Of a stretch of 64,000 bases of DNA, positions 18,284 to 63,288 are shown piece by piece. Every line of letters begins with the position of its first letter. Positions within the stretch are counted from its first letter, which is position 1. The DNA comes from Somniosus microcephalus. Its lineage: Eukaryota. Under the pieces are notes generated by a model. The model made no database searches, was not told the origin of the DNA, and saw nothing but the letters and a program-made list of their open reading frames with translations. Location of the stretch: NCBI GenBank assembly GCA_052327205.1, contig CM126227.1, forward strand, positions 41,168,001 to 41,232,000, given 5' to 3'. Both the position numbers and the translations under genes were made by a program.

Positions 18284-18511
<228 letters not shown>

Positions 18512-35068: not shown

Positions 35069-35120
35069 AAATTAAGAACTGTACCTGTACAGTACATTGT
35101 AGCTGAAAAACAGGATAGAA

Positions 35121-36452: not shown

Positions 36453-36727
36453 CCATTCAGCCCACCATATCTGTCACTCTTTGCTAGAGTAATCCTACTG
36501 CCCTGTTGTCTCCCCATAGCCTTCTATTTTGCTCTGCTTTAAATATTTATACACTCCCTTTAAAAGATGCAATAGTCTCTGCCTCAACTAGTCCACGTGG
36601 CAAAGCTTTCTATGCTCCAACTTACTGTGCAGAAAGAAATGTACTTACTGGGCTATTGGAAGAAGCTCCTCCTAGCCTTTTTCCACAGTGAATGCAGTAG
36701 CTGTGATGATACAAGTCTTTGTACCTA

Positions 36728-37189: not shown

Positions 37190-37809
37190 GGGAACATTTC
37201 AGGTTCTTTAGAAAGAAGGCCAATTGAATTTCTTATGCCGTGCTGAACAAGGGCTGTGTTGTGTAATTGAAATTTCTGAGCGGGTTGTGATGGTGCGTAG
37301 ATGAGATTACTTGCTCTTTCCAGCTAATTATTAACTTTTGTAAACCACTCACTCATAAAGGAAAACTAATTACCTTAATTTTTCCATCTCAGGGCTCATT
37401 CTGCGGTTTAATTGGCGTCCATTACACTAATTGTGTTAAAGCCCTATAACTTCCAAGTAAATAAACGCCATAGACTGTTGTGGAAATAAAATAGGAATTT
37501 TATTTTGACACTCATTATATTTATAAAGATTCCTATTTTTACCACAACTGCATATCGAGCATTTGTTTATTAGGTTGTTACACTGCTTTCGCTTAATTAA
37601 TTGGTAAAATGGATGCTAATTTAAGTTTGTTTATTGTCCCTCTTGGGTCTTCTGTCTATCGTCCTTCAGCAGCGAGGGTGGGCAGGTAGTCATTTCCCAG
37701 GAACAGCCCCCCCTCCCCCTCCCATTTATGGCCCATCTCTGTTCGTGAGCACCTCAGTGGGAGATACCTAAGACCAGCGCTGACTCGTTCGCCATTTATC
37801 TACTGGTAC

Positions 37810-38413
37810 TGATTTAATCCAACGTTTCAGAAATCAGCTACTGTGAACCAGCTCCCAGTGTTTACACTGTTAAATCTGGCTTCCTTTTTCCCAGTAGCAG
37901 ACTCGTAGGCAAAGCACTGAGAACCACCCTAGTCAAAATCACCATTGATATCTTCTGTGACTGCGATCACATTGTGTGACCTCTCTGTGGCATTCAACAC
38001 GGTCCATTGCACCACTTCCTACACCTCTACGGACCCGCCCTTGCACGGTTTCACTCCTACATGTCCAAAATGTGACCAGCGTATCTCCAGCAATGGCTTC
38101 TACTTCTGCCCCTGCACGGCCATCTCCATTGGACCACAAGGTGCCGTTCTTGGCCCACTTCTTTTGCTCATTTACCTGGTGTCCTTCAGTGTCATCATCC
38201 AAAGGCATAGGGTCTGTTATCATGTTTGTTGATGACTGTCTGCTCTACCTCTCCACCATTCCCCTAATTTCACAACTACCTCTGTGCTGTTGGACTGCGT
38301 GTCCCCAGCAAGTCATGGATGAGCCAGAATTCCCTCCCGTCTAACATTGGGAAGATCCAATCCATTGCATTTGGCCCCTGCTAAAAGCTCTCTACTCTTG
38401 CCACTGACTCCAT
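37810..38413 (+). mobile_element. Old L2 LINE RT fragment (continues at about 40300-40700)
   Basis: DLSVAFNTV, GPQGAVLGPLL, DD.LLYLS; the 3' part with FKIL..FY.SL and KTYLF resumes after the Harbinger insert. Confidence 0.75.
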
Positions 38414-40250: not shown

Positions 40251-42009
40251 ACTTGCCCATATCCTGTCCTGCTTGTCCATCATTTCAATCCTTACAAACT
40301 GTTATTTGCTGTTCCCCAACACACAAATTTCAAAATCCTTGTCATGTTCTACAGATCACTTGATAGCCTTGCCCCATCTTACTCTGACTTCATGTGATGT
40401 CCTCCCCTAATACCCTTCATTCCTCTAACTCTGGAGTCCCATGCACTCTCATTCCCTCCTTTCCAGAATTGGTGAGAGCTTTAGGAGTCTCAGTTCTACT
40501 CCCTGGAGGTCCATTCTCATACCCTCCACCCAACTTCCTCATTCCCAGCTTTTAAGCGCTGTCTCAAAAACCTACCTATTCAGCTCTGCCTTCAGCAGGT
40601 TGACCAACTCCCCACTTATGCTCACTATCTATTTTCACTCTTCTGTGAAGTATTTTGGGACAACTTTCTGGGTTAAAAGCATAACATAAATGAAAATCTG
40701 ATGTTATAATTTAGATAAATTTGAACTAAAGGAAATGAATGTTAAACATTACCATTTGAAATGACATACATTTCTTCAATCAAGACTAGCAAACGAGTTC
40801 ACTTGTAAGGTGCCTATCAAGCCATCCTGTCTATGTTTGCCACTTTATATGCTTCTGGGCAAGTGACTGCAGTTATTGGCAGCGAGATAGACAAAAGATA
40901 TTCTGGTGAGTTCTAGATTTAGCTGGGGAATAACAAAATGTTAGTCTCCAGTCTCTCAGATTTGTTTGAAATCATGTTTTCTTTAATTAGGGATGTTAGA
41001 TATTTCATAAGCTGCTTAGAGTCCAGGGATCGCCTTTGTATTGCTGTGAAGTTTTCAGAGTTTCTGTTCTGATTTATTATATTATAATGGGAATCACCTC
41101 TAATTTGAAATGCCACTGCTCCTTTGTATAGCCTTAAGGTAGTTGTTTCAGATTGTTTAGTAGAGCAACTTGTGAAATATAATATTGCTGAAAGTGGTTT
41201 ATGTTTGCCTTGGATGTGTGTTATAAATGATCTAATTCTACTCATCCCTCATTTCCTCCACTCTGCCATCAGAGGCTGATCTTTCAGTATCTACGCCCTT
41301 GATCTTCGGAACTTTCCCCCATCCCCCTCTGCTCCCCACCACCCACCCCCCACGCTCCCCAAGCCAGTTTGCTTTGTTCCGTATCTCCGTTCCTTCAAAA
41401 CTTTTCTCTTTGACTGTGTGGTCACCCCACCCCAATTTTTCCATTCTCCTGCTCGGCATTGTCATATTCTCTTGCTATGCAACATCCCTCCATTGGCTGC
41501 TGTGTTTCCCTACATAACAACAGTGACCACATTTCAAAAATACTTCATTGCCCTCAGAGCACTTTGGGACGTCCTGAGGTCGTGAAAGGTGCTGTATAAA
41601 TGCAAGTCTTTTTTCTTTTATTAATGCATGTTGCTGCAGTTGTTGTTGCAATTTGCTCAAAACACACTCAATTTAGAATTGTTAGGTGATCTAGCTGTAA
41701 TGTAAAAACCACTTTTTAGCGGCGACACTGGCCAATTAAAGCAAAATGGCTGTTGTGGTTGCCTACATATCAATTGTCACTGCACTTCAAGTTAATTCAT
41801 TGAATGTGGTGCGCTTTAAGTTCATTATATAATATGATATACTGTATAACATTGGGGTAATCTAGATAAACACATGAGGGAGAAAGGAATAGAAGGTATT
41901 GCTGATAGGGTCAGATGAAGGAAGATGGGAGGAGGCTCGTGTGGAGCATAAACACCAGCACGGTCCAGTTAGGTCGAATGGCCTGTTTCTATGCTGTACA
42001 TTCTATGTA

Positions 42010-43005
42010 CAGGAAACTTTGGTTTATCCGGAGGTTAACTGTCCAGAATGCTCGAGCCACCGGCAAAATTCAGGAGTCGGTTCAGTAATTTTTTTTTGTT
42101 TTCGTTGCTTTTTTTTCACCAGTCAGGCTCTGCAAGGTCTAGCTAAAGCTGTTGCTTAGTTACAGAGATGCTTGCAAGCTACGGCCGACTGTTTAGAAGC
42201 TGATCTCAGCCAATAGCGCAACGCTACCCGCTACCGCACTGCGAATAAGAAAATATCAGAGGGTGAGCCAACCAGCTCTACTCTCTTGAACTGCATGATG
42301 CTTAGTTACAGGAGGTGATTGGCATAGGTCTGGTTCCTGCCCTTTCGGTTATTGGAATAGTGCATAGTGTTTTGGGTGGACGGGCGGGCGGTGGCTGGTT
42401 AGAAGGAGATAATTTTAAAATGGTAATCAGTACACAGGTCAGTCATCAGGAGCTGCGTTTTTTTCAGACATTGAAGGCTAGAAAAGAACCGAAAGCATAA
42501 TACAGGAAACTCTTTGGTATCTGGCACTGACGGGACCGGTGTGTTGCCGGTTGATCAAAAATTCTGGATGACGGAGAGGGTTATCTACCGAGGCTATTTT
42601 TAACAAAGAAAAATAAAAAAAATCAAGAAATGTGCCGTATACAGTAATTGGGTACTCACCTACAGAATGTTGTGTTAAATGGATGGTGGAAGATGCTTGA
42701 TTAAGTACAGTACTGCTAGTTGAGGGTAATGCAATGCAATGACTACCAGCAGTGTGGGAGACACACACTACCCCTGTAAAATGGTGGATCAGAAGAGACT
42801 ACCGGCAGCGCGGGAGAGTCAGACTCCTGTTATTGAGGTGTTCCGACTTCCGACAGCGCCAAGAAGCTGAGTAGTGGCAGTTTGGAGAACTACCCCCACT
42901 GACTAACTCGGCCACTGCGGGAGACTCGAACTCGGCAACATTGCCGGTTATTGAGGTGTTGTTTTCGGAGTGGGAATTTTGCCGGTTAAGAGAGAATTCT
43001 CCTTT
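42010..43005. mobile_element. Cluster of pogo/Tigger-like MITE pieces
   Basis: TA|CAGGAAACT ends at 42010 and 42503; bodies match the 22055 element; TTGCCGGTTA subterminal motifs near 42940-42990. Confidence 0.65.
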
Positions 43006-43071
43006 CTACAGACTCCCAAGCCCCACCCTCTGTAAACTCTATATGAGGTCCCCCATCTATTTTAACAAAGA

Positions 43072-43405
43072 TTTTTATTTATATTGTGCCTATAACGGCC
43101 TCAGGATGTCCCAAAATGCTTTATAGCCAATGAAGTACACTGTTGTAATGTAGGAAAGGCGACAGCCAATTTGCGCACAGCAAGGTCCCATAAACAGCAA
43201 TGTGAGAATGATAAGATTGGCTGAGGGATAAATATTATTCAGGACATTGGGATAGAACTCCCCTGCTCTTCTTCTGAATAGTGCCATGGGTTTTTTTTAC
43301 ATCCACCTGAGAGGGCAAACGGGGCCTCGGTTTAGTCTCTCATCTGAAAGACAACACCTCCGACAGTGCACTCCCTCAGAGTGCTACCTTTGAGCCACAG
43401 CTGAC
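43072..43405 (-). mobile_element. Deu-domain SINE
   Basis: Reverse complement of the 36728 copy with a deletion in the head. Confidence 0.8.
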
Positions 43406-43807
43406 GCAAAGCAATTAACCCAAATGGGGCATTAAAATAGCAGGCAAGTGAATGCTGTACAACTCCATTAACATTGTTGTGAGTAGTGCATTTATTTTTT
43501 TCACCTCTGAAATATCATCCGCCTCCCACTGCTGGCATAATGAGACTTGATTTCGCCAGTGTTTTCCTTGCCAGCTTCTCAACTTTCATCCTCCACAAAA
43601 TACAACTCATTCAGAATGCATCCTTAACTGCACAAAGTCCCACGCTTACGTCACCCCTCTACTTTCCAAGCCGGACTGACTCCCCATACCCCAGTAAATT
43701 GATTTCAAGATCCTCATCTTCACTTTGAAATCCCTCTAAGGCTTCACTCAACCGCACCCCCCGCCCCGCTCAAATGATGCACATTTAAAAGAAAAATAGC
43801 TAATGTG

Positions 43808-44125
43808 AACATAAGAATTAGGAAGAGGAGTCGGCCACACAGCCCCTCGAGCTTGCTCCACCATTCAATAAGATCATGGCTGATCTTCAACCTCAATTCC
43901 ACTTTCCCGCCCGATTCCCATATCCCTTAGAGTCTAAAAATCTATCGATCTCGGCCTTGAATATACTCGGTATCCACAGCCCTTTGGGGCAGAGAATTCC
44001 AAAGATTCACAACCCTCTGCTTGAAGAAATTCCTCCTCATCTTAGCCTTAAATGGCCGACCCCTTCTCCTGAGACTATGCCCCCTAGTTCTAGACTCTCC
44101 AGCCAGGGGGGGAAACAGCCTCTCC
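43808..44125 (-). mobile_element. CR1 3' fragment
   Basis: GAACATAAGAA tail and CCATTCAATAAGATCATGGCTGATC 3' UTR shared with other copies. Confidence 0.85.
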
Positions 44126-46018
44126 GCATCGTGAAAGAACGATTGCTAAATACTTGTAGGATTCATCAATTTAACAGCCATTATTTTTCAGCTTTCTGTT
44201 AAATCTGTTGTTTTTTTTATTGTGCAGTAAAAGAAGATATGCCGGGGGAATGGAATAATAAACGCAGCTTATAATACAACTCTGGCTTGTGGTTAAATGT
44301 ACTGTAATGGTGAAATATTCTGTTTTAAACACAAATTGCAACCTGATTGTTAAGTAAATGCCTGCAGCAACAGGGGCAGATGTTATCAGTCAGGCTGTCT
44401 TAGTGCCTGATTTGGGAGAAGAGGCTGAGGCATAACACAGCGGAAGATTAATCAGAAGTTAATGATGATAGTTAGCTGGTTAGTACATTTTGCTCGCTAT
44501 GAAAAGCCCAATACATGATTTCAAAATGTGAATATGTGTGTCTCTCGCTAAAGATGTGGACCTTTTAGGACTGTGCCCTGTGACCGGTTCATACTACTGC
44601 TTTTTCCTAAAATCCCTGGTGGAAGGCGCTGCTCCTAGCCATAGGGAGAGTGTTCTCTCTCTCTCATCATCAAAGCACACAGCATGGTTTATTTTAATTA
44701 CCTGATGGAAATTCAAACTATGTAATCAGATTTTCAAACCGGGCAAACCATCAAGGCTCACAAAACCGTAACTTTCCTATCCAGCACTGGCTCACACCGT
44801 CCAATATCGCTCCTTCAACGCAGCGTTCTACAGGTTGCAATTGTTAAGTGGAGAATTCAATGCCATAACTCACCATGAAAGTAAAACACATTTTAAAAAG
44901 CCTCACTATGCTGGAGCTCTGAGGCTGAAAGCGAAATCGAAAAATGCATTTACAAAACTTTAAAGTCCAAACGCGCAAAGTTTGGGAAATCTCATTAATC
45001 TAACGAGCAATATAAAAACACATCTCAAAGAAAAGATTGTGTTTATATTGGAAAATTGTTGCCGAATCTGTCAGTAGAGATATTGGATTTTGATCTCATT
45101 AACACAGTGGACAAATGATAAAGCTCAGCATCATTTGCATCTAACCCACTCTGATGGAAAAACCTCCCACTCTCACCCAAATTAAGCTCTGGATAGTGTA
45201 TGGGGTAACACTTTGATTACTTTATTTCCGATTCCATTATGTTTTGCTCGCTTATTATACCCACAAGGACATTTCACATTATGAATGAAGTACCATGGAA
45301 AAAGACCAGTGAAACTATAACTCTGTAATTCGCCACAGATGTCCCAGTAATGTTCCGTGCACATCATTAACTGTTTTACTTACATTACTGCGGAAAATAG
45401 GCAAATCGCTCCCGGATGTCAGTAATTTAAAAGCAACGTGCTTGGGGTTATTGCCTATGTTACTTGGAACTTTAAAGGAAATATTACAAAATGAACGAGG
45501 CAGAGGGAACAATTGGCGCACCATGGCTGCCCTCGGTACCTCGGAGTTAGGAAGAGGTTCCTGTGCCAAATTGCTAATCAGTGACCCCTGCTAAAACTGT
45601 GCCTGTGTGGGCATTGGGTGATGACAGGACCCTGCTTGGTGTGATGCCCCCAACAGTCCAATAGTCTGCCAACATTTGCTATCAAGGCTTGAATACAAGA
45701 CAATGTCAAGACATGAAATAATCACCACTTGGCCAGCTAACGGAGGCGAACAGCGACTATGAACTTAACTTCAGCAAGGAGTCAACACTTTCAGGTGAGG
45801 AAAGGAGAGAAAATTGGCAAAGGATAAAAATTAAACAAGACTATCATAACAGAGATGAGCTTGATTGATTAATTCAGTGATCGACCCATGGTGTGGGTGA
45901 GTCATGAAGAAGTTAAGGGAGTGATTAAATGAGTAAGTAATTGAGTGTTTTTGGTGGGTGAGTGGTTGCTAGATTGTGGTATTGAGTGATTAAATCAGGG
46001 ACTGAATGATGCTCAGTG

Positions 46019-46131
46019 CATAATTAATCGGGACAACCAAATTTTAATTTGATTGGTGGAGGGCTATTTTAAAGGGTTATTGGGTTTTTGTCACCTTATT
46101 TGTGAACTTGTTTTTGGTCGAATAAAAAGAG
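46019..46131 (+). mobile_element. Very short Tx1 3' end with 22-bp TSD, inside a degenerate (GAGT/GATT)n satellite (about 45850-46945)
   Basis: TSD AGGGACTGAATGATGCTCAGTG at 45997-46018 and 46132-46153; GGACAACCAAATTTTAATTT shared with 17410. Confidence 0.8.
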
Positions 46132-46359
46132 AGGGACTGAATGATGCTCAGTGGGTGAGCGATTAATTGATTGATTGAGTGAGTGATTGAGTTATCAGGA
46201 AGTCATTGAGTTTTTGGGCAAAAATGTAATTATTAGCAGAGTGATTGAGATACTGGCTGAGTAACTGAGTTATTAGGGAGGGAGGGAGGGAGTGAGTATT
46301 TGAGTTTGTGGGGGAGTGTTTGAGTAATTCAGTGTTTGAGTGAGTGAGTAGTTATTGGG

Positions 46360-46810
46360 TATCAGCCTTGGCTCCTCAATGGTAGCACTCTCGTCTCTGA
46401 GTCAGAAGGTCATGGGTTCGAGCCCCACTCCAGCGATTTGAGCACATAATCTGGGATGACACTGCAGTGCAGTACTGAGGGAGTGCTGCACTGCTGGGAG
46501 TGCTATCTTTTGGATGAGACATGATGCCCCGGCTGCCCTCTCAGCCGGATGTAAACGATCACCTGGCATTATTTGAAGAAAAGCAGGGGAGTTCTCTCCA
46601 GTGTCCTGGCCAACATTACCCCTCAATCAACTCCAGTAAAACTGATTATCTAGTCATTTATCTCATTGCTGTTTGTGGAATCTTGCTGTGTGCAAATTGG
46701 CTGCTGTGTTTCCCTACATTGTGACAACACTTCCATAGTACTTCATTGGCTGTAAAGCACTTTGTGACATCCTGAGGATGTGAAAGGTGCTATTTAAATG
46801 CAAATTCTTT
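46360..46810 (+). mobile_element. Deu-domain SINE, full length
   Basis: B-box GGTTCGAGCCC; colinear with the 36728 copy. Confidence 0.85.
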
Positions 46811-49499
46811 ATCGGGTTGGGTGATTATTTACTGAGTGAGTATTTGACTTCTTGGATGAGTGATTGAGATTTTGAGTGATGTCTGAGTTCTTGGGTGAGT
46901 AAGTCATTGGACAATGATTTAATTATTGGGAGTGATTGATTTGTTCTCAGAAGTGTTGTGAAATATAGTATGGGCACCTGTCATGCACAGTTTCTCCAAA
47001 CTGATAACACCAGCTGTCCCATATTATATTCCAAAGCCATAACATCTACTCAAAAGGATCATAAGGTAGAGTTTCCTGCGCCAAGGCTCTGGTGCTAGGA
47101 ATCAGAAAATCTAGCCGACCATATAGCATAAAACCACTACTGTGCCAGCAAACATTTTAGATGGACATAAGGTGATTGCCATGAAAACAAGCCACAGGTT
47201 AATTTACTACATTACATTGAAATGGAGTCAGTGCAAATGTCCAGCTTTTTAGGACTAGGATTGGGGCTGGTTCTCATTTGCCCATTTGGAGTGAGCCAAA
47301 CAGAAGCTCCATGAGCAGTGGGGTTCTTATAAGAGCAGAGACTTTTTGGCCTTTTGTTTTTGTTTTGCAGTATGGTTTAAGTACAGGCTTCCCTTTCTTT
47401 TATTGGTATTTTAATGAAAAATATTCATGAAGTTTTTGGGGAGGTTCTTTTTTGCCTACTGCGACCCCATCACAGTATTTTGAAGTTAAAATGGTACAAA
47501 ATGAAAGACTTCGCAGGGAGATCGGCAGGTACCAGAGCTGGACTGCCACACCGATTAATTATGCCGCCAACCATATCTTTAGGGTAGACACAATTACCTG
47601 CCAGTGACCGAGAGAAGCTGACTCCTCAGGCCCCGGGTCAGCATAGAGCCGACTGCGGACATGTGCAATCTGTTGGCAAAGATACCCGGAGCTAACCTGT
47701 ACCTTAGGCATGCAACGCCAGTGATAGATAGTCAAGGTCACATCCTGCCTCAATATTTTTTGTCTCCGCCCAACCACCCCACAACCAGGTAAGCTGCCCT
47801 CTGTGGAGAGTGCCAACCATCCTTGCACCCACTTTATGCAGCAACACCCACAGTTCAGCTGCCATCAAACAAGGCATTTGGGTTCAGTGCCACTCCATTA
47901 CTTGGCTAGAAACTCTGTTTCCTACCACCACATTTATTTGATCAGTTACGGAGAATTATCAAGCCCTTTTTGTGCTCCAACAGCCTTCGGAAAGGCTGAA
48001 ATATATAGCGGAATTTTTTTTAAAAAAAAAGGTTTTTCCCTCTAAGGAGCAGTGGGATGTTTTTCTATATAAAGATGCTTTATAAATGTAAATTGCAGTC
48101 ATGTCCTTTTTTGCAGGCTAAAACTTTTATATCCTCATACAGCAGTTTAAAGGTAAGTGGCTGTATCATTTTAATTTTCCCAGCAGCTCTTTAAGGGCTG
48201 CTGACGCATGCAGTTTCCTGCCTTGTCCCTTTGGCAACTCCCAACACCCGGCCCATGATGGGTGGGAAGCTCGCCATGAATAAGTAACGAGGTACGGGAA
48301 ATCCTGTAGATGGGCTCTGCTGGAAATGGCAAGGTTTAGGTTGCTTGACAGATACTTCGCTGTTTTGTGGGGACCTACAGAAGCCTGGAGCAGTGCACAG
48401 AAGGGTCTGCAACAGACCTGAATACATTTGCAGGAGTATTTGTTAAAGTAATATCTGTGTTTTCAAAGAAAGTTTCCTATTTCTGTGTCTTTCTGTTCTA
48501 ATTGTGCTATCAAACATTTCATTACTATCACCAATTTTTATGTTACCACCCACTAACCAGCAACATTATTGCTTTTGTGATTTGTTGTTTTGTGTTGTAT
48601 CACATGACAGAAAGAGAGATTTTTATAAAATGATTAGGGCTATAATAGCATCAACCGAGAGCACATTTCCTGTAGTGACATATTACATGCCTGCAACTAG
48701 TGTAAACAAGTTATAGGTATTTATGCCATGATAAAAAATTACCTAGAGCTATATTTGTTCAGAAGGGTTAATGACCTATTTTATTGTCATTTACCATCTG
48801 TTAAAATAGTGGGTGTGTGTGGTTTTTAAATGGATAATTTCATACAGCACAGTGTTAGTTAGCAGTCACAACAAAAAGTTGTCACAGGCACCTGTAATAA
48901 TGATCCCTTAGTACCTCTCAAGCAGCTAACAAACTAATTAATTAGAACAAACGATGAACAGTTCATTAATCCAACTGTGAAATATGTTTAATGACTGAAT
49001 GGAAATTGAGAAAATCCTATTTTATCCCCAAGACCCTACAGATAGAAGAATCCATTCGGTTTATTAAAATGTATCACACATTAATACACGGCCTCCTCGC
49101 TAAGTGAATACAGATGTTTCTGTGCCTCAATGTGACTTTTTTAGAAGTAACCATTTGAGTTGAAACACAAAAGAAATTGTTAATGTTTTGGAAAAATAAA
49201 ATGGATCTGAGAATAGCTTATTAATTTTCTGGATAAATAAAATGGATCTGAAATTAAATAGATTACTAAGAGAAAATTATTTTTCCAAACATACCCTTCC
49301 AAAAAAACCTAAATCAGTTTTTAACTTCTCCCTCCATATTGTCATTTGAAAGAGATGTGGTTTATTCAATTGTTGTAATAAAATAGTCATTGAAAAAGCA
49401 TCATAATATAATCTGAGAACTCACTCATTAACTAAACCTATATCAACTGCACTATAGCGTTACCTGAATAGCCCTCAACTTCAAGGTCAAATAATGATT

Positions 49500-50165
49500 C
49501 ACTAGGAAAAACATTTTTACGCAGCGAGTGGCGAGGACCTGGAACTCGCTGCTGACGGAAGTGGTGGAAGCGGAGACACTCAATGTTTTCAAGGGGAGAC
49601 TGGATAGGCACTTGAGGGAAATAAACTTGCAGGGCTACAGGGATAGAGCGGGGGAATGGGACTGACTGGATTGCTCTACAGAGAGCTGGCACGGACTCGA
49701 TGGGCTGAATGGCCTCCTTCTGTGCCGATATGACTCTATGACTAGGTTGCTATCTGGTATGAGGAAATAAAAATAAAGAAACATTTCAAAATTGGGGCTG
49801 TTTCTTGGAATAGAAGAGATTCCAGGTTGATTCGATAGAGGTATTTTAAATTATGAAGGATGGGGCAGAGTAGATAGAAACAGACTCAAGTCATTGAGGG
49901 GGTCTAGAAGGCTGCATGCAAGAGATTTAGGACAGAGAGCAGAAGAAACGTTTCTACATAGAGGTTTCTGATGCATTACCAGATTTAGTTATTGAAGCAG
50001 AGGCCATATCAACATTTAAGAATAGTTTAGATAGGCGGTTGAAGGAAAACGGGGAAAGCACATGAGATTAGGATTACTGCCCGTGTGGACGATAAACACC
50101 AACGCGGACTGGTTGGGCCGAATGGCTGTTTCTATGTTGTAATTTCTATGTAATTCTCTGTATAA
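49500..50165 (+). mobile_element. Two tandem CR1 3' ends (different subfamilies)
   Basis: TTTACGCAGCGAGTGG...GAATGGCCTCCTTCTGTG with (ATGACTCT)n tail; second copy with (TGTAATT.C)n tail. Confidence 0.8.
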
Positions 50166-51339
50166 TATGGAAGTGGAGCTCTCCCAGGATTCACAGCTGC
50201 AGTGAAAGTGCTCTATTGAAAATAGGGGGCGTGTAGAGTTCATCAGAGCCTGTCACCAAGCTTTAGACTGTGGAAGCCTGCCTCCATAGCATGAAGCATG
50301 GAAACAAATGTATATGCTGAAAGAGCCGATTATGTATTACTGAGCGATACAATCCAGTATGATGGTCAGTGCTCCAATGAATACATTTACAAACTACAGA
50401 ATAACAAGGTGCCTGAATCAGTGAACAGATATTTGGGGGAAAATGGACTTTTTCTATTTTGAGAGCATTCAATTCTGCCACCACTGTGGTGATGCTTTGA
50501 AATCTTTCTATTCTTTAAGCTCATGAACACCAGGTCCGACTTGGAGTTCCATACTCATTTCGGTTTATACCCTCACCCCCTCCTTCCCCGTTTGTGCAGA
50601 AATTGATTATGGCAAGCTTTTAACAAGGCTTTAACAAGCAAAAGGCTGCTTTTCAAAAACTATTTGCTAATTTCTGGAAACCCATTTCCGGACAGCAAGA
50701 ATCCTTACGGCAACCATAAAATGGACAAACAGTTCATTACCACTTTCTCCCATACTGCACCAGTCTTAACACACAGCTAACATTAGCAAACAAGGCTTGG
50801 AGTTTCTCGAGGCTGGATCTTTGTCCTCTTGGGTAGCTGTTCTGTGTTTTCCCGCAGTATGGTTTAAGTCTGAAATTCTGGTTTGGCCATTGCTAGGATA
50901 CAACGTTCCTGTCTCCTTGGTAACTGTGAACAATCGCAGCATTGTGCCTCCTCAGAAGCTATTGTGGATTACAGTGGAAGTATCGAGATTGCAGCCTGGG
51001 TTCCTTCCTTATGAAGAAAGGATTCCAAAGGCTGTGCCCTACAATAAAACATTATTTTTAACATGTGGTAAAAGAACACACTTGCAGCAAACAAGAGTCC
51101 CGAGATTACAAGACTCCGCTCATGGCACACAGTCTCACTCGATGAGTGTGCCCGAGGTCAGAGTGCCTGATTTGTGGTGCTCCTAATTTCTGTTTTGTTA
51201 AAACCGATCTCGAATCTGCATTATTGTCAAGTAAGACTCCATGCCGGGAGCAGTCTCGCAGTTTTGGGGCTATGTTTGAATGCCTCTGCAGAATTTCACA
51301 CTGGTTTTTTCTATGATACATAAGATAAAATCAAGGATT

Positions 51340-51780
51340 TTTCTCCTCCCTCCCAAGTCATTCTTATTCAATTTTCTCCCGTTTTCCCTCCTCCTCTCCT
51401 GAAGATGCTGACCCATGTCAGGGTATTGTTCCACGGATGATGGAAGCCCCCTGCCTCACCAAAGAGACATTTGTGAACCTGGATAGTGGGTATCTTGATC
51501 ACAGGGTGTGGGGGTGGGGGAGAGAGAGGACATCATGGCCAAGTCCAAACCTATTCTCACCTGACATCCACACACATGCACCTTTCAGCAGGGGCCGATG
51601 GATAAGCGGTCGAGAACGAGAATCCTTGCTGATTCTTTACCCACCATCACGCACAAGGCCCAAATTACTGTCCCATATGACATCAGCACAGACTGGGAAT
51701 CAAGCCTGGTATCTCACTGGCCTTTATGGATCTGTCACACATTTGGTGAGGCTTTTGTCCACTAAACTAGCCACAATATT
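51340..51780 (-). mobile_element. tRNA-headed SINE family B, near full length (another at 53015-53425)
   Basis: From CTCCTCTCCTGAAG tail to CAGCACAGACTGGGAATCAAGCC B-box region; colinear with 53015-53425 and 5720-6130. Confidence 0.72.
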
Positions 51781-51949
51781 TTGAAGCATAAGTCGGTACT
51801 TAATTTGTATAACTAACTGAGCTGTCAGTTTAAAAAAATACAAGTAATTGCAAATCATATCCGACGATTACTATTTGTGGAGTTATTTCAAACTGTTTGC
51901 CGTGCCGATTACAGTGAGAGCAGTGATCAGAACAAGACATTTCCTTAAT

Positions 51950-52947
51950 TTACAACGTCAACAACTTTATTTAATGTCCCCTTCCATAATGTAATGTTCC
52001 TGTAGACCGGTGCAAGTCACATTTAATATTAAAACAAATCCAAAAATACCAATATTAATTACATCTTTATTGATCAGTTGATAAATCTTCAAACTGAGAA
52101 ATATCAGTGAATAAACTACTGGTTTAGGAAGTGTGTTAATGTTTGTGATTTTTAGGTGTTAAATGGTTGATATTATAGAATGTCTTTTTCAATGTAGTTG
52201 GTACAGAAATTATCCTCATTATTTACTGCGTTTGAGGTTATCCAGTTGTTTTGTCTGTCTTAGGAGTGAGAAAGAAGACTTTAGGGACATAGCACAGGTT
52301 TACCAGCACTGGATGTCTCTGGTACAGCACAGTGTTCCAGGAGTTTGGATAATGGTGTTGGTGCTTGTTGGGTTGGAGGAAGGGAAGGCGAGCAGATGGG
52401 TTCCACATCAGGCAGGCTCTTATTGCAACTCCAAACCCCAGTGTTCCCATGAATACTTAACTCTGAGACCCTGGAGAAGCATTGAGTTCTTACGACATTC
52501 AGGGACTACAGTGCAGTGGAAAAGGCAACTTCTCCAATGGCCTTAAATTAAAAAGGATGAATTATTTGTAGTGAATAAAGTATGAATTTCATAAATTCTG
52601 AGACTGGCAGATTTTTGTTCCTCAATAATTTTTTTCCTAAAAATGTTGGAAGCGACTAAATCTGAAGGGCCTGTTAGAAAAGATCTGAATGGGCTCTAAA
52701 ATATTCAGTGCAGAAGTGTTTACTTAAGTTCCAAACGTTGAAAATATAAATGGTGCTGTTCATTGGAATGACTTGGATTCACTAGTGACTCTGCTGATGG
52801 TCGATAAATGCCTGTTAATGGAGGTTAATGACAGATTGATGTCAATTCACTCAACTTGATAGATGTTGCATCATTAATCAGCATCAGCCAACATTGTCTT
52901 CAAGTCAAGTGTTGTTAGACCCGGAGCAGTGACTGTAGTTTGCAATC
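51950..52947 (-). other. PDE9A: Probable non-coding last exon (3' UTR) of the PDE9 gene
   Basis: Strong acceptor TTTTATTTATTTTCATTACAG ending at 52948; AATAAA on - at 52066-52071 and 51966-51971; upstream donor at 54008. Confidence 0.6.
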
Positions 52948-54021: not shown

Positions 54022-54066
54022 TTACTTCTTCGATCCGAGAGGGATATTTTCTGTTTTCTTCCGCAA
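54022..54066 (-). CDS. PDE9A: PDE9A-like, last coding exon
   Basis: Acceptor TTTACAAG; LRKKTENIPLGSKK-stop resembles human LQKKTDSLTSG; donor GTAAGT 13 nt after the stop. Confidence 0.8.
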   Translation of the reverse strand: MRKKTENIPLGSKK

Positions 54067-54276
54067 CTTGTAAAGTTAAATTTTAAGAAGACAGACATTA
54101 TTGTGGGCAAAGTGACGTTAAAATGCTCGTTAAACACAATGGGGTTTAAAATTAAAAGATCACACGTTTTTATTATAACTTTCAACTTAAAGGATAACTT
54201 TAGTAGGCTGGCAAGCCTTTCACACAATAATGTACTTAGGGCCAAAATCCCTTGGACTCCTTCTGCTGCTGTAAGT

Positions 54277-55415
54277 ACATAAGAAATAGGAGCAGGAGTC
54301 GGCCATTTGGCCCTTCAAACCTGCTCCGCCATGCAACAAGATCATGGCTGATCTTCTACCACAACTCCACCTTCCCGCATTATCCCCATATCCCTCAATT
54401 CCCTTTGTTCTCAAAATGTTATCGACCTCTGTCTTGAATATACTCAACGACTGAGCATCCACAGCTCTCTGGGGTAGAGAATTCCAAAGATTCACAACCC
54501 TTTGAGTGAAGAAATGTCTCCTCTCAGTCCTAAATGGCCAACCCCTTATTCCGTGACTGAGCCAGTGTTCTAGATTCCCCAGCCAGGGGAAACATTTTCC
54601 CAGCTTTTACCCTGTCAAGCCCCTTAAGAATTTTATATGTTTCAATTAGATCACCCCTCATTCTTCTAAACTCTAGGGAATATAGGACTAGTCTACTCAA
54701 CCTCGCCGCATAGGGCTATCCCCTCATCCCAGGAACCAGTCTAGTGAACCTTTGTTGCACATCCTCTAAGGCAAGTATGTCTTTCCTTAGGTAAGGAGAC
54801 CAGAACTGTACACAGTACTCCAGGTGTGGCCTCACCAATGCTCTGTATAATTGGCCTCACTAATGCTCTGTATAATTATAGTAAGACTTCTTTACTCTTA
54901 TACCCTAATCCCTTTGTAACAAAAGCTAACATACCATTTGCTTTCCTAATTGCTTGCTGTACCTGCATGTTAACTTTCTGTGATTCATGTACAAGGACAC
55001 CCAAGTCCCTCTGAGTGAAACATTTCCCAGTCTCTCACCATTCAAAAAATATTCAGCTTTTTTGTTTTTCCTGCCAAAGTGGATAACTTCACACCTCCCC
55101 ACATTGTATTCCATTTGCCATGTTCTTGCCCACTCTGTCAACCTGTCTATATCTCTCTGCAGCCTCTTTGCGTCCTCCTCACAGCTTACTTTCCCACTTA
55201 ACTTTGTATCATCAGCAAACTTGGATACGTTACACTCAGTCCCTTCATCTAAGTCATTAATATAGATTGTAAATAGCTGAGGCCCAAGCACTGATCCTTG
55301 CGGTACCCCGCTAGTTACAGCCTGCCAACCTGAAAAAGTCCCGTTTATTCCTATTCTGTGTTTTCTATCCATTAACCAATCCTCAATCCATGCTAATATA
55401 TTACCCCCAATCCCG
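54277..55415 (-). mobile_element. CR1 LINE, RT 3' half
   Basis: SGVPQGSVLGPQLFTIYINDLD, KFADDTKL, YNVGRCEVIHFG. Confidence 0.93.
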
Positions 55416-56249
55416 ATGTGCCGTTGACTTCTGCTCCTGACTCCGCTAGAGAATCTGAGCACCAGGTGGGGTCAGCTAATTGTAATAGTTCTGCCAGGCA
55501 CCCCCACCAGTTTGAGCACATCTTAGGTGCTTGCTTGAAGGGTGGGGAGGGGGCATAGGAAGATGCTTCACATCTACTCGGGTTGGGCAAGTTGGCACGA
55601 CTGGCAGAAGTTTTTTTTTAAGTTGGAAATTGGCCCTCTTGATAAGAGGTCCAATTTCTACTCCACTAGGTTTAATGCTATCCTTTATTTTATCAAACAA
55701 GATTATAGTAAAACCTCATCCCTTCAGAAAGAGAGAGCGATAGAGAGAAAGCGCGAGCGAGACCAACGCGGAATGCAACGAATGGAGGGAAGTGCGTTTG
55801 ATCAGCCATTCCTCTGAGTTTCTGATCCTGACCACATTGCAAGGGAAGGTGTCAAGTGGAGAAAGTGGGCTTCCTCATAAGTGAAGGGTGGGAGAAGAGG
55901 AGAAAGAAAAATGGACAGTAAGATATCTCCGGGAGTTCCAACAGTTAGTTAATTGTGTCATTGGTAGAAGTGTGGGAAAATGTCTGTCAAAACTGCCCGT
56001 GGCCTAGTGAGACCATAGCAATGGGAAGGGGAAAAGCGTTTACAATGAGAGGATATTGAATTATAAAGGAATTCACTAATCTTCATTAATATATAATGGA
56101 TACACAATAGTGTGATTATAAACTAGGGAACAGACAGTGACAGAGGAGACTCACTAGGGGAGGTTGAGATACAGAGGATGCATAATTTATGTTTTTAAGA
56201 AAGTGTTGAAGGATGGTTGCCATAGAAACAAAGCACTCTCTGGTTGGCA

Positions 56250-57460
56250 GTGTGTGCATTCTATTCATTGATGCAGTAACTTGAGTTATTTGATGAAGTA
56301 ACGGAGAGGGTTGTTGAGGGTAGTGCAGTTGATGTTGCATATATGGACTTTCAAAATGCGTTTGATAAAGTACCACATAATAGACTTGTTAGCAAAATTG
56401 AAGCCCTTGGGATTAAAGGGGCAGTGGCTGCATGGATATGAAATTGGCTAAGGGACAGAAAACAAAGTAGTGGTGAACGGTTGTTTTTCAGACAAGAGGA
56501 AAGTGTGCAGTCCCCCAGGGGTCGGTGTTGGAATTACTTCTCTCTTTGATTATATATTGATGACCTGGACTTGGGTATAGTGGACAAAATTTTAAAGTTT
56601 GCAGATGACACACAACTCAGAAATGCAGTAAACGGTGAGGAGGATATTAACAGACTTCAGGAAGACGTAGGCAGACTGGTGAAATGGGCAGACACGTGGC
56701 AGATGCAGTTGAATGCAGAGAAGTGTGAAGTGATTCATTTTGGTAGGAGGAATAAAGAGAGGCAATGTAAAGTAAATGGTACAATTTTAAAGGGGGTGCA
56801 AGTCTTTGAAGGTGGCAGGACAAGTTGCGGTGGCTGTTAAAAAGGCATACAGGATCCTTGGCTTTATTAATAGAGGCCTAGAGTACAAAAGCAAGGAAGT
56901 TATGCTAAACCTTTAAAAAACACTGATTAGGCCCCAGCTGGAGTATTGTGTCCAATTCTGGGCACCATGCTTTAGGAAGGATGTCAAGACCTGAGAGAGG
57001 GTGCAGAGGAGATTTACTAGAATGGTACGAGGGATGAAAGACTTCAGTTATTTGGAAAGACTAGAGAAACTGGGATTGTCCTCCTTCGAGCAGAGAAAGT
57101 TAAGGGGTGATTTAGGTGATCAAAATCATTAAGGTTTAATAGAGTAAATAAGGAGAAACTGTTTTCAGTGGCAGAAGGGTCAGTAACCAGAGGGCACAGA
57201 ATTAAGGTCATTGGCAAAAGAACCAGGGGCGACATGAAAAACAATTTTACGCAGCGAGTTGTTGTGATCCGGAATGCACTGCCTGAAAGGGAGGTGGAAG
57301 CAGATTCAATAGGGAATTGGATAAATACTTGACGGGGTGGATAAACCTGCAGCACTATGGGGAAGGAGCAGGGGAGTGCTAATTGGACAGCTCCTTCAAA
57401 CAGCCAGCGCAAACACGATGGGCTGAGTGGCCTCCTTCTGTGCTGTTTGATTCTATGATC
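56250..57460 (+). mobile_element. CR1 LINE, degraded RT 3' half
   Basis: DFQNAFDKVPH, KFADDTQL, NAEKCEVIHFGR; TTCTATGAT tail. Confidence 0.9.
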
Positions 57461-57738
57461 GAAAGTGTCTTCAGAGGATGGCTACACTTCAAAAGTAGTT
57501 CATTGGCTGTAAAGATGTTTGGGACGTCCTGAGGTTGTGAAACAGGCTATATAAATGCAAGTCTTTCTTTTACGGTAAAGGTAAGTGGCGCCAACACAAT
57601 TTACAAAGGGGATTATTTTCTAATTCCAAAGCAAAATTATAGCCATCATTATTTACATATGATGGCTGGGACAGAGCAGCAACTTAGTTGAGGAGTTAAG
57701 ATTGTATTATCTACAGGTCACCGATTGGCTGCATTTAC

Positions 57739-57834
57739 CTCATTCATGGCATCATCAATCTGTTTCAGCTCTTCATAGCGATCCCTGGAATCTCGCAGAG
57801 GCTGTACCGTAGCTTCTTCAATCTGTGGGAATAA
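57739..57834 (-). CDS. PDE9A: PDE9A-like exon (96 nt)
   Basis: AG/GT flanks, phase 0; [32 protein letters not shown] versus human [32 protein letters not shown]. Confidence 0.95.
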
Positions 57835-58107
57835 CTAACAGCAAATAGGCAATGATCAGTGTAACGCAATTTACAGAATAAGAGTGGCATGGTGGTCCTG
57901 TAATAATCAAACCTGGCCACGCACAAACTTCATGGGATGTTTTGTCCTAATGCATGCAGAGCAAACATTTAGGGTAATGACTTTCAGGGAAATGTCTGTT
58001 TGAAAGTATTCTTGTATTCCCCTCACATTATATAGTCGGGTACAGGAAATATGAGATGCAGGATAAAACTTCCTTTACACTGCCTCCAAAATATGCCTTA
58101 GACCTAA

Positions 58108-58334
58108 TGATGTAAGAAAACTACTAGGCACTTGGTCTAAGCGTTAAACAAAGCTTTAATCAACTGTTTTACAACATGGAGGTCTAGTTGTGTCCTTCAC
58201 TAGTTCCTGTTAAGAATGTCCTGCACAAGCTGGGCCTGTGCCCGAGTATTTATACTCTCCCTGGACAGCGCCACCCACAGGCCGCTCAGTATTATTTCAT
58301 AAGTCTTTCTTTCATGAATGACTGATTCATGTTA
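58108..58334 (-). mobile_element. Solo LTR (227 bp), 5-bp TSD CCTAA
   Basis: CCTAA|TGATGT...TTCATGTTA|CCTAA; colinear with 33439-33664. Confidence 0.82.
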
Positions 58335-58534
58335 CCTAATGTTAAAAAGGCACCCTTATTGCCTCATGAAAAAAAAACTTGTATTTATATAGTGCCTTTT
58401 ATAACCTCAGGACATTTCAAAGTGCTTTGTGTCCAAGGAAGTACTTTGTAATGTAGGCTAACACAGCAACCAATTTGTGCACTGCAAGGGCCCACAAACA
58501 GCAATGAGATAATTGACCAAATAATCTTTTTTTT

Positions 58535-59165
58535 AAAATTCATTGATGGGATGTGGGCGTCGCTGGCTGGCTAGGCCTGCATTTAGTGCCCATCCCTAAT
58601 TGCCCTTGAGAAGATGGTGGTGAGCCGCCTTCTTGAACCGCTGCAGTCCATATGGTGTAGGTACACCCACAATGCTGTTAGGAAGGGAGTTCCAGGATTT
58701 TGGCCCAGCGACAGTGAAGGAACGGCGATACAGGTCCAAGTCAGGATGGTGTGTGGCTTGGAGGGGAACTTGTAGGTGGTGATGTTCCCATGCGTCTGCT
58801 GCCCTTGTCCTTCTAAGTGGTAGAGGTCGCGGGTTTGGAAGGTGCTGTTGAAGGAGCTTTGGCGAGTTGCTGCAGTACATCTTGTAGATGGTACACACTG
58901 CAGCCACAGTGCGCCGGTGGTGGAGGGAGTGAATGTTGAAGGTGGTGGATGGAGTGCCAATCAAGCGGGCTGCTTTATCCTGAATGGTGTCGAGCTTCTT
59001 GAGTGTTGTTGAAGCTGCACTCATCCAGGCAAGTGGAGAGTATTCCATCACACTCCTGACTTGTGCCTTGTAGATGATGGAAAGGCTTTGGGGAGTCAGG
59101 AGGTGAGACACTCGCCGCAGAATTCCCAGCCTCTGGCCTGCTCTTGTAGCCACAGTATTTATATG
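58535..59165 (-). mobile_element. 3' end of the second CR1/L2-group LINE, inserted into a Deu SINE (halves at 58372-58530 and 59165-59447)
   Basis: IYKAQVRSVMEYSPLAW...GLQRFKKAAHHHLLKGN; the SINE is colinear across the insert. Confidence 0.88.
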
Positions 59166-60189
59166 GCTGTTTTTGTGGTGTTGGTTGAGGAATAAATGTT
59201 GGGCAAAACACCAGGAGAACTTCCCTTCTTTTCTTCAAATCGTGCCAAAGGATCTCTATGTCCACCCAAGAGGGCAGATACGTCCTTGGTTTAACATCTC
59301 ATCTGAAAGACAACACCTCCGACAGTGCAGCACTCCCTCAGAACTGCACTGAAGTGCCAGTTTAGATTATATGCTCAAGTCTCTGGAGTGGGGCTTGAAC
59401 CCACAACCTTCTGACTCAGAGGCGAGTCGTACCATTGAGCCAATGCTAATACCTATGGTGTCGCTGACTGATGTTGCCAATTTAGGGGAATCATGTGTCA
59501 AATGAATTGGTAATTTTGCGCAGTGCATCCCCACCCACCAAGATCTAGGTCACCCAGACTCTTTCACCTACAGCCCTTGCATCTAGCAGAGGAAGGCTAC
59601 CAGCCGAAGATACTGATGATGTATCCACCACACGATCCAGCCTGCTAAGAGCAGAATTGTTACTATCTCTGAATCGTGGGGGGTTTCTCCCGATCCCCTA
59701 CCGTAACTTCAGCAGAAGATTGGCCATTTCTCCAGGGTTCCTGCCGGTCTTACAGCAAGAGATCGAGATCTCTCCCGATGTACAAGTAAGAGGAAGTGGG
59801 AGAGTGGGATAGAAAAGTAACCCAAAATCCTCCAGGTTTGATTTATTGTTTGGCTTGGTTGCACGTTTTGAGGGGAAGCGGGGTAACAGGTACTTTGTTC
59901 ATTTCAACAATAACAAACTAATTCAAACAATCAGGCAGAAATGAGCTTGAACATGGGCGTCTGGAATTTCTGCAGGGCTTGTCCTGATCTCCCGCCATAA
60001 CTTGGGCAGCAGATCGGCGGAATCCACCCACCCCCCCCCCCAAAAAAAAGACACAATATAAATGACCAAAAAAGGCCAGGCTGCTCCATCACGGACTTTA
60101 TCCAATCCAACGGGAGATGGAACCCTCGTGGAAATTCTAACCGGGGGTAATCATTGAGCTGATCGCTCTTGGAACAAGGGCACAGTTCC

Positions 60190-60440
60190 CTGTGGATTAA
60201 ATGATCCAATGGGTTAGACGCTGGTCTTCCACCTTTGGAACCTGGGTTCAGTTCCAGCCCAGACTGATGGGATGTCCTAACTGAAATGAGTTTAGGCAGT
60301 TTCAATCCACTTTCTGATGGGCATGGGCCCACAACTAAAACTAACCCTACTAAATTGTCAATCTTACTCAGAGAGAAGCTGAGGATGGCTGGTGTAAGAA
60401 ATATACAAATGTCAAAGGTGTAGCTCTACCTCACCCAGAA
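60190..60440 (+). mobile_element. Degraded LF-SINE-like element
   Basis: TTCCACCTTTGGAACCTGGGTTCAGTTCCAGCCCAG, TGAAATGAGTT...TCCACTTTCTGATGG...CCCACAACTAAAAC and CAGAGAG..GCTGAGGATGG follow the recalled LF-SINE consensus in order. Confidence 0.55.
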
Positions 60441-60612
60441 GTACTTACAACTGAGTGGCCAAAATAAATAGTCGCCCAGTTCCCAGCACTAACACTCCTC
60501 ACCTTCACCTTGATGAAGGTGATGAACACAAACATCATTAAAGAAGGGAAGGGACCTCTGAGGTAGTCATTCTTCGATCAAGAGAGGAATTACCCGTTAA
60601 TTCTGAACTTAC

Positions 60613-60741
60613 CTTCATCAGTGTCTCAAATGTCGGTATGAGGACAAACTTGATGAATCCAATCTGGGCTGTGGGCTTGGTAACCTTATCTCGATCCATG
60701 AATGGGGCTACTGGAAGGCCTTCAGATTTCTCCCGGTCACT
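60613..60741 (-). CDS. PDE9A: PDE9A-like exon (129 nt) with the invariant Gln
   Basis: AG/GT flanks; [43 protein letters not shown], near-identical to human PDE9A. Confidence 0.97.
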
Positions 60742-61034
60742 CTGCAATTGAACACAAGCAAACTATATTAAAGATGTATGTTTAGAAAGAATAGTTTTTT
60801 TTTCATATACTCTGCTTGTAAAGAGGGAGATGTTCTAGGCATAAGCCTTGATTGAGTTGAATCTAAACCCGAAGCTGACTGCAAACTTCAGTCCTAAACC
60901 CAACTAAACTTTGAGCCCAATGTGATCTGTAAACCAAATCAATCTGAACTCGTACCTCAATCTCAATCTGAACCTATGACCCAACTTGAATCTTAGCCCA
61001 GTACTTAACCTAAACCCTAATGCAGATCCTACTA

Positions 61035-61357
61035 CAGGAAACGTTTTTTTATCTGGCACGGACGGGACCGACGTGGTGCCGGTTCATCAAAAATTCCGGA
61101 TAACCGAAAGCTATAGTAAAAGATACGGAGCTGAGAGCTCCGTATAAAGCAACAAACCCTGTTGCTTAGCAACAGCTTCAGACCAATGGCCACAAGTTGC
61201 AAGCGTCTCTGTAGCTTAGCAACAGCTGCAGCCACACCCTTGCACAGCAACAGATGAAGGAAGGCTAGTAATAAAAGTTACCTGAACCTACTCCTGAATT
61301 TTGCCGGTTAACCGAGATTTCCGGTTATTTAGGTGCCGGTAAATCGAAAGTTTCCTG
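61035..61357. mobile_element. pogo/Tigger-like MITE, 323 bp, inside a degenerate AACCC-type repeat (about 60850-61490)
   Basis: TA|CAGGAAAC ... GTTTCCTG|TA; body matches the 22055 copy. Confidence 0.85.
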
Positions 61358-62484
61358 TATAAACAAAGCTCAAATTCTTACGCTGACTCCATTTGGGTTT
61401 CAGAGCAAATCTGAACTGGAACCAAAGCCGAAACACCAGCTGTATCCTGAGCTTCAACCCAACCTCAAAAACCAATCCAATCAGCTTTGGTCATAGTAAG
61501 GAGAAAGAGGCGCCGAAAAGGGTTCCAATAAGGGGCAACAAGAATGGTATCAAACAATGGAGCTACAACATGTAACTGGAACTCATCTTAGCAAAAGAAG
61601 TGGTGGCGGAGGGAGAGGAATAATAATTCAAGCTTTTAAAAGGATATGCAAATATGGTTAGATGAAGTAGAATATAAGGAGGCTCGTGTGGAGCATAAAC
61701 ACCGGCATAGACCAGTTGTGCTGAATAGCCTGTTTCTGTGGTATAAATTAAATGTAATTCTATGTAAAATCAAGAGGATGGTCTGTAGGATAGATGTGGA
61801 GAAGCTCTTTATGCTCACCCAGAATAAGAGAATCAGAGGGCACAACTACATCCCAAGGAAGGTTGCTGAATATAACTTACAGAGCAGTCATTTCACACCA
61901 GTTTACGGAATAGACTGTCACCGAGTGTACTGAATAGAGACTTGACTGAAGTATTTGAAAAAGACATTGACAGGCTCCTGATTTAACACATAGCAGAGGG
62001 ACTTGAGCTTGTCACCAAGGCAGCACTGAGATGATTCAGCCAACACAGCAAGACCAGAGCACATGCATTTAAAAACAGTTTTGAAACAGACATTTGGATG
62101 AACTATTTTACTTAAAGCGTGATAAGTGTTTGGAACGATATGCCAGGTGGGGTAGTAAAGACAGAAACATTGTGGGAGTTCAAAGGAAGCTGGATGCTGT
62201 AATGGGAGAGCTAGGTACAAGAGGGATGAGGTTCAATGGGACGAAAGGTCTTTTCTCATCCTTGCCTATCGCCAGTTGCCCTGAGAAGGTGGTGGTGGGT
62301 TTTCTCCTTGAACGGCCGCAGTCCTTGAGATGGTCCCATAATGGTGTTAGGTAGGGAATTCCAGGATTTTGACCCAACTAATTTGTTAACTAAGCATGCC
62401 TCCATTTTATTGTCAGCCCATTGAAGACAACAACAAATCACCCTCTACAGTTTGCACCATGAGATCAGTAACTATGTCTTTCAC

Positions 62485-62589
62485 CTGTGTAAAGTATTCT
62501 TCGAGCAAGCAGTCAACCCAAGGGTCCGCCACTTCTGTCGGCCGCACTTCATTGGAAATATCACAGCACTTGATAAGAAGCATTTTCAG
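62485..62589 (-). CDS. PDE9A: PDE9A-like exon (105 nt)
   Basis: AG/GT flanks; [35 protein letters not shown] with the metal-binding Asp and PDE9-type Glu and Tyr. Confidence 0.97.
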
Positions 62590-63174
62590 CTAGGAAAAAG
62601 GGACAAGTGCTTTTTCTGAGTAAGTTCATACATTTCTGCTTTGTCACAATCTAAAACCATTAATCTTCAACAGTCTTTCCCTTCCCCCAATTTTCAGCTT
62701 TCCAACCTCTCCTTAGGGCCACTATTCTCCCAGCTGGCACCAGAGGCACAGAGTTTTTAAGTTCAATGTGCCCAATTGTTCCCCTTTATAAAAGGGCCAA
62801 TTATTAATAATTGAGCCATTATTTTTACTGGGGTCTGGGTGGGGCCTACGTCTGCTGCTCAAATGCTGAGCGTTGGACAGGCCGGGGACGAGGAAATTCC
62901 TGGCGTTGAAATTCCTTCCCCCCAACCCCACCACTGGCCCCAACACCACCACCTCCATCTTGGAGGGAGGAGGTTCCACTCCAAACAGACCCCGACAGAA
63001 ACTCGTGGATAGTGAATTCCAGTCACATCGGTTTTCCACCCCTTCTGCTGCACTTCCGGCTGACTGACACTGGGACTACGCTAAGGGGCCTGTGGACATT
63101 TGGAGCCAGTATCTCTTAATTTGCAAACTAAAAAGGCCATTCATTGCTCTGAAGATTATGTTCGTTTTACTTAC

Positions 63175-63288
63175 ACTCATTTTGTGTTCTTCATTCAAGA
63201 AATCAAAGGTGGCAACCTTTGGTCTGAATGTGTCCAGTATCTCTCCATGTCGAGCCATGTCTGTCGCTAGGATAAGTGTAATAATTCC
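63175..63288 (-). CDS. PDE9A: PDE9A-like exon (114 nt); gene continues beyond the window
   Basis: AG/GT flanks; [38 protein letters not shown] versus human ...[18 protein letters not shown]...NEEH. Confidence 0.96.

Follow-up and report, generated by a model that had tools for sequence, protein, structure and literature searches.

We analysed a window of 64,000 nucleotides (nt) of DNA from the shark Somniosus microcephalus (GenBank assembly GCA_052327205.1, contig CM126227.1, positions 41,168,001 to 41,232,000 of the forward strand), which carries on its minus strand, near its right edge, the 3' end of a gene of the PDE9 family, that is, a class I cyclic nucleotide phosphodiesterase whose PDEase_I domain is nearest to that of PDE9A. 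Phylogenetic analysis supports the view that this gene is a paralogue of human PDE9A occurring throughout the jawed vertebrates, and not its orthologue. The two lineages, referred to here as clade A (with human PDE9A) and clade B (with the window gene), probably go back to a whole-genome duplication that preceded the split of sharks from bony vertebrates. An initial annotation of this DNA, made from the letters only, had proposed a second PDE9 gene, paralogous to PDE9A, and this is borne out by the trees and topology tests described below.

Placement in the PDE9 tree

The five coding exons in the window join into an open frame of 162 codons, the C-terminal 162 residues of the protein, and it is this translation that was placed. 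We chose the tree rows manually among the search matches, leaving out partial sequences and surplus isoforms; in the alignment, 31% of the columns are filled in the row of the window gene. The outgroups were Mytilus, Actinia and XP_078662599.1, which we take to be amphioxus, and there was no zebrafish row. A search against clusters at 50% identity supplied outgroups but was otherwise rejected, as it merges A and B. In the careful 43-row tree, support was 100/98 for clade B, including the window, and 99/94 for clade A, and the window lies inside the elasmobranch B group (100/99) on a short terminal branch of 0.037. The same split was obtained in a mixture-model tree of 35 rows (B 99, A 93) and in a quick tree of 66 rows, in which cartilaginous-fish B joined bony B at 97. 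Clade A is made up of human PDE9A and its counterparts in other tetrapods, coelacanth, gar, teleosts, sharks and chimaera, and clade B of the window gene and sequences from sharks, rays, chimaera, coelacanth, sturgeon, teleosts and frogs. The window gene does not group with tetrapod PDE9A; such a grouping, with this as the only PDE9 of the genome, is what the initial annotation had named as telling against its reading. Its suggestion that teleost genes already represent the second PDE9 agrees with the teleost rows in clade B.

Approximately unbiased (AU) tests, whose groups were named after the first trees had been seen, rejected a tree with the window in clade A (p-AU 2.5e-5), a duplication confined to cartilaginous fishes (p 4.4e-6) and the placing of Xenopus B with tetrapod A (5.7e-7). 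By the trees and these tests, the A/B duplication falls after the invertebrate outgroups and before the split of cartilaginous and bony vertebrates. Identities point the same way: the window matches shark B at 145 of 149 positions, cartilaginous-fish A at 119-126 of 149 and human PDE9A at 118 of 149 (79%). Six alignment columns separate A from B, and the only one inside the window, T410, has the B state there; five B-type residues are common to 18-20 of the 19-21 B rows.

Among the matches listed, the nearest proteins are models from sharks and rays called 'PDE9A-like', at 94-97% identity; over the 162 residues the figure is 96.9% for that of Chiloscyllium punctatum and 76% for human PDE9A, far beyond chance. 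XP_072449179.1 (C. punctatum), XP_038635740.1 (Scyliorhinus) and XP_060702778.1 (Hemiscyllium), at 97% and in the same clade, are direct orthologues in RefSeq. For many cartilaginous fishes, as well as for coelacanth, teleosts and frogs, RefSeq already carries the B gene as 'PDE9A' or 'PDE9A-like', automatic annotations that are blind to the existence of two paralogues.

Both copies across species

The evidence for coexistence of the two copies, and for the SLC37A2 neighbourhood described below, comes from species other than Somniosus. A and B are both on record, on different contigs, in 6/6 non-teleost species (Hemiscyllium, C. punctatum, Hemitrygon, Narcine, Callorhinchus and Latimeria), which are not independent of one another, and in each of the six the A copy is on the longer contig and B on the shorter. 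Rows were scored as A or B against profiles built from the non-tetrapod members of the two clades. Among amniotes 0/77 rows scored as B, a weak sign of absence since only the best 120 of 905, 1412 and 1313 matches were listed. Amphibians gave 10 B rows out of 11 among the matches listed, from one cluster and seven frog species; the axolotl row was near neutral on the profiles (-6) and stands with clade A in the trees (100/100). No frog clade-A row was present among the matches listed, which means little. Taken together, this suggests that B was lost on the amniote line after its split from the amphibians.

The frog proteins labelled PDE9A or PDE9A-like (P0441, P0261 and their cluster; XP_012822440.1 of Xenopus tropicalis and XP_041425130.1 of X. 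laevis) thus belong to clade B like the window gene. They are fast-evolving, on a long stem of 0.29, are identical to the window at 110 of 149 positions and are often labelled plain PDE9A. Neither the retention of B in frogs nor the orthologues already annotated across cartilaginous fishes had been foreseen in the initial annotation.

Synteny and probable origin by genome duplication

The window itself gives direct synteny of PDE9 B with TMEM218, the two genes being convergent on one stretch. In a chimeric model of Acipenser sinensis an SLC37 transporter is read in one frame into a downstream B-type PDE9, and this order and strand, SLC37A and then PDE9, is the one that the initial annotation had predicted; a search of the ESM Atlas with the transporter returned family-level SLC37 names, by which A1 and A2 are not separable. 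A second sturgeon model, from A. ruthenus, fuses an OAF domain (PF14941) to a B-type PDE9. Both sturgeon models (P0105 and P0067) are likely to be annotation read-throughs. In man OAF lies on 11q23. Gene lists printed for chicken chr24:0-1 Mb (PMC6678660) and for cattle chr29 (PMC12789686) name SLC37A2, TMEM218 and PKNOX2 and no PDE9. A HEPACAM protein, P0458, was listed in a teleost PDE9-B cluster and was rejected as synteny evidence as it has no PDE sequence; a chimeric model may have bridged HEPACAM and PDE9-B, since the lists for chicken and cattle place HEPACAM in this block too.

On the A side, the human order on 21q22.3 is SLC37A1-PDE9A-WDR4-NDUFV3-PKNOX1. B would have arisen within the block SLC37A2-TMEM218-PKNOX2, the presumed paralogue of SLC37A1-PDE9A-PKNOX1, and the duplication would be a genome duplication, leaning to the second, jawed-vertebrate round. 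The PKNOX1/2 pair is dated to the vertebrate genome duplication in PMC10337857, and an allotetraploidy of jawed vertebrates with beta segments of low retention is described in PMC7269912. If B was on the smaller chromosome and was then lost, it would match a beta copy, for which the shorter contig in 6/6 species is only suggestive.

Transcripts and the 3' untranslated region

The 3' untranslated region (UTR) of the window gene is interrupted by an intron of 1061 nt beginning 13 nt past the stop codon. Nonsense-mediated decay follows as a rule when an intron lies more than about 50 nt past the stop; the UTR intron is unlikely to trigger it, because it is only 13 nt away. The five exons counted in the initial annotation stand as coding exons, but a sixth, non-coding 3' exon had been overlooked. 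Besides the acceptor and AATAAA signal in Table 1, evidence for it comes from a contig of 1822 nt from a relative (run X3, putative RNA), of which positions 620-748 equal window 60613-60741 with zero differences and positions 902-1775 correspond to window 52068-52946, in the 3' UTR exon. These two pieces are 7.7 kb apart in the window and are separated by 153 letters in the contig. Since exons 4 and 5 together are 154 nt, we infer from the lengths that the contig is a spliced form with the exon 4/5/UTR junctions, including 54009 to 52947. A contig from run X1 covers 52742-52947 and ends exactly at the acceptor. The PDE9 proteins of fish and sharks, in both clades, end near this 3' point and mammalian PDE9A extends further.

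Two further, raw RNA runs, X19 and X20, are labelled with the species whose DNA covers most of the stretch and state no tissue; 24% of X19 and 31% of X20 were read. Away from the repeat-free bins considered below, their depth in the PDE9 region is cross-mapping of long and short interspersed elements (LINE and SINE), heavy over the introns.

Weighing of other explanations

Several points weigh against the reading of clade B as an old and living product of genome duplication. A tree joining cartilaginous-fish B to clade A was not rejected (p-AU 0.108), so that the orthology of shark B and bony B is carried by branch support, and the trees are without lamprey or hagfish rows. The amniote absence is weakened further by the fast-evolving frog B, which is itself near the bottom of its hit list. 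The sturgeon transporter has human SLC37A2 as its best PDB match (E 1e-175), a figure given with no comparison with SLC37A1, and the chicken and cattle gene lists may omit unnamed loci. The pairing of alpha and beta chromosomes was not found in the texts and supplements of PMC7269912 and PMC8040251 that were searched, PDE9A being absent from three supplements of the former and PDE9, SLC37A and PKNOX from one supplement of the latter; ohnologue tables outside these texts may list the pair. Finally, X19 and X20 have a depth of 0-0.08 on the repeat-free bins of the PDE9 exons and UTR.

The tree that passed the AU test, together with the long stems of the shark B rows and the short internal branches near the root (0.04-0.06), would fit hidden paralogy over two rounds, in which cartilaginous-fish B is a third lineage and not the orthologue of B in teleosts, coelacanth and frogs. 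This is improbable, because all three free trees unite them (97; 100/98; 99), the five B-type residues are common to them, and sturgeon B lies by an SLC37A2-like gene and shark B by TMEM218, which form one block in chicken and cattle. A slightly smaller chance is left to an early small-scale or segmental duplication as the source of A and B. A gene tree dates a duplication and not its mechanism, and the paralogous block around A is presumed; however, the copies are unlinked in 6/6 species, the B side repeats the order and strand of SLC37A and PDE9, and the neighbouring PKNOX pair has the date given above. That the window gene is PDE9A itself, moved beside TMEM218, or a duplicate of PDE9A peculiar to sharks, might be suggested by the many B proteins that RefSeq names plain 'PDE9A' and by the separate A copies on record being from other species, but both corresponding trees were rejected and other sharks have a separate A copy that is nearer to human PDE9A, which makes it very improbable. 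Equally remote is a silent or decaying B copy in this species. For it speak the near-zero depth in X19 and X20, a C-terminus one residue short of that in other sharks, and the two-thirds of the coding sequence that lie beyond the window; against it are 162 codons with no stop or frameshift, canonical splice sites, the short terminal branch, the spliced contig of a relative, and the many sharks and rays for which an orthologue of full length is annotated. The genome-duplication origin of a retained clade B therefore remains the preferred reading.

Active site and likely function

Residues are numbered as in PDE9A2, from a 533-residue primate isoform that reproduces E406, Y424, Q453 and F456. 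Human PDE9A (PF00233; PDB 3DY8 and 4QGE) is of the same family, and the 118 of 149 identities given above are over residues 355-503. Of 18 tabulated positions within the span of the window, 16 are as in human PDE9A. The two that differ are 426, with T for M as in elasmobranch B, and 450, where P replaces A, a state found in all B rows and most A rows. The window paralogue also differs from human PDE9A in T410 for M, in being without the mammalian C-terminal extension and in having different neighbours. The residues picked out in the initial annotation (the Asp of CCDIS, Glu of SNEVRP, Tyr of EEYF, and Gln and Phe of TAQIGF) are indeed retained as D402, E406, Y424, Q453 and F456. H252, H256, H292, D293 and D402 are the metal ligands and catalytic histidine of PDE9. 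Only D402 is in the window, and the other four, which lie outside it, are invariant in 20/20 other B rows. Full-length B rows keep these upstream metal ligands and also an N-terminal Gly2/Ser6 pattern, a myristoylation-type start.

The same annotation had tied these residues to cGMP (cyclic GMP) selectivity. That they are retained is correct, but the role of Glu406 and Gln453 was overstated. In PMC3069055, wild-type human PDE9A has a Michaelis constant (KM) of 0.113 uM for cGMP and 501 uM for cAMP (cyclic AMP), and Gln453 hydrogen bonding and Phe456 stacking are described in the nucleotide pocket. Binding depends critically on Gln453, which is however unlikely to tell cGMP and cAMP apart; the ratio hardly changes in E406A, from 337 to 280; and it is argued there that Gln453 and Glu406 do not decide selectivity. 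On these grounds the glutamine-switch reading of selectivity was rejected. The pocket residues are nothing special to the B copy because they are invariant in invertebrate PDE9 too.

From its sequence, PDE9 B is very likely a high-affinity cGMP hydrolase like PDE9A. It would be a two-metal class I phosphodiesterase with the mechanism of PDE9A, in which guanine would be clamped between Gln453, by hydrogen bonds, and Phe456, by stacking, and cGMP would be converted to GMP with a sub-micromolar KM. As there is no change in the pocket, the reason for keeping the copy was most likely a different expression pattern or dosage rather than new chemistry. PDE9A acts on natriuretic-peptide cGMP in the human heart, according to PMC8548580, and nothing here extends this role to B, which leaves the extra cGMP/natriuretic-peptide signalling branch of the initial annotation unsupported. 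One could go further and suppose that PDE9B is a functionally distinct cGMP hydrolase of restricted tissue expression in water-living vertebrates, which might end natriuretic-peptide cGMP signals in salt-handling organs, and that it was lost on moving to land; frogs might then keep B and lose A, and the frog 'PDE9A' would not be orthologous to the human drug target. Because the gene is near-silent in X19 and X20 and all 10 frog rows among the matches listed are B, we mention this, but it is unlikely.

Clade B is probably an ordinary retained ohnologue, unnamed but known to the databases, with its active site unchanged: one more that fishes and amphibians retain and amniotes have apparently lost, which is a common pattern, with no sign of new chemistry. 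PDE9 counts as a one-gene family and serves as a drug target in heart failure and the central nervous system, yet fish and frogs hold two ancient lineages under one name. This matters for nomenclature and for reading experiments in zebrafish and Xenopus, in which a 'pde9a' label may denote the paralogue that is not the human one, and single PDE9 knock-outs in fish or frogs may be buffered by the other copy. PDE9 inhibitors should act on both copies because the pocket is the same. Two zebrafish pde9a genes were reportedly studied in oocytes in a 2020 paper. Three zebrafish genes, pde9aa, pde9ab and pde9ac, are tabulated in PMC12498267, all against human PDE9A, and three would fit one A and two teleost B lineages, as there are two Danionella rows in B. 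No paper on a second vertebrate PDE9 clade or on the loss of clade B was found in a literature search whose scope left most subscription journals outside.

Gene structure and the rest of the window

The coding exons of PDE9 (Table 1) all have lengths that are multiples of 3 and are in phase 0, with an AG acceptor on 5/5 exons, a GT donor at the codon boundary on the first four, and introns of 585, 1743, 2778 and 3672 nt. The five intact phase-0 exons of the initial annotation were thus recovered at the coordinates it had given. The catalytic domain that it had described is present, but the window covers only the C-terminal half, from residue 355 onward; the further 5' exons, including those for the metal-binding histidines, are past the right edge. 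Exon 3 matched human PDE9A structures in a PDB search at E ~8e-20 and PDE1B and PDE4D at ~1e-4, a difference of about 15 orders of magnitude. Degenerate LINE and SINE fragments fill the introns at 54250-55500, 56250-57480 and 58500-59450.

Table 1. Coordinates of the exons of PDE9 clade B and TMEM218 in the window
Feature	Position	Strand	Evidence and remarks
PDE9 coding exon 1 (114 nt)	63288-63175	-	PDE9A2 residues 355-392; Pfam PDEase_I E 1.1e-4
PDE9 coding exon 2 (105 nt)	62589-62485	-	D402, E406, Y424, clade-B marker T410; PDEase_I E 4.7e-9
PDE9 coding exon 3 (129 nt)	60741-60613	-	M-loop, Q453, F456; PDEase_I E 4.7e-11
PDE9 coding exon 4 (96 nt)	57834-57739	-	End of catalytic domain; no Pfam match alone
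PDE9 last coding exon	54066-54009	-	45 nt coding to TAA (54022), 13 nt 3' UTR, GTAAGT donor
PDE9 non-coding terminal 3' UTR exon	52947 to ~52050	-	Strong acceptor 52947; AATAAA 52071-52066; 3' end approximate
TMEM218 first coding exon	18401-18510	+	PF25810 TMEM218_N E 1.4e-13
TMEM218 second coding exon	20176-20281	+	PF25810 TMEM218_N E 1e-6
TMEM218 last coding exon	32420-32554 (stop at 32554)	+	No Pfam match; TMEM218 motif and frame continuity

TMEM218 has three coding exons for 116 residues on the plus strand. The tail-to-tail arrangement of the initial annotation is right as to the convergent orientation, but ~19.5 kb of repeat-rich DNA lie between the two genes. Intron 2 of TMEM218 is ~12.1 kb and intron 1 is 1.7 kb, a repeat expansion. 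Pfam matched 0/119 stop-to-stop frames of at least 70 residues in 1720-18300 and 32600-52000, a test that leaves shorter exons outside, and a motif scan of the window for PKNOX and SLC37 found none, nor did Rfam give any match in it. At the left edge, positions 1-1719 of the plus strand hold an open frame of 572 residues, cut by the edge, which is the pol of a long terminal repeat (LTR) retrotransposon with the Pfam domains RT_RNaseH and rve; it is rich in GC and CpG and is probably young.

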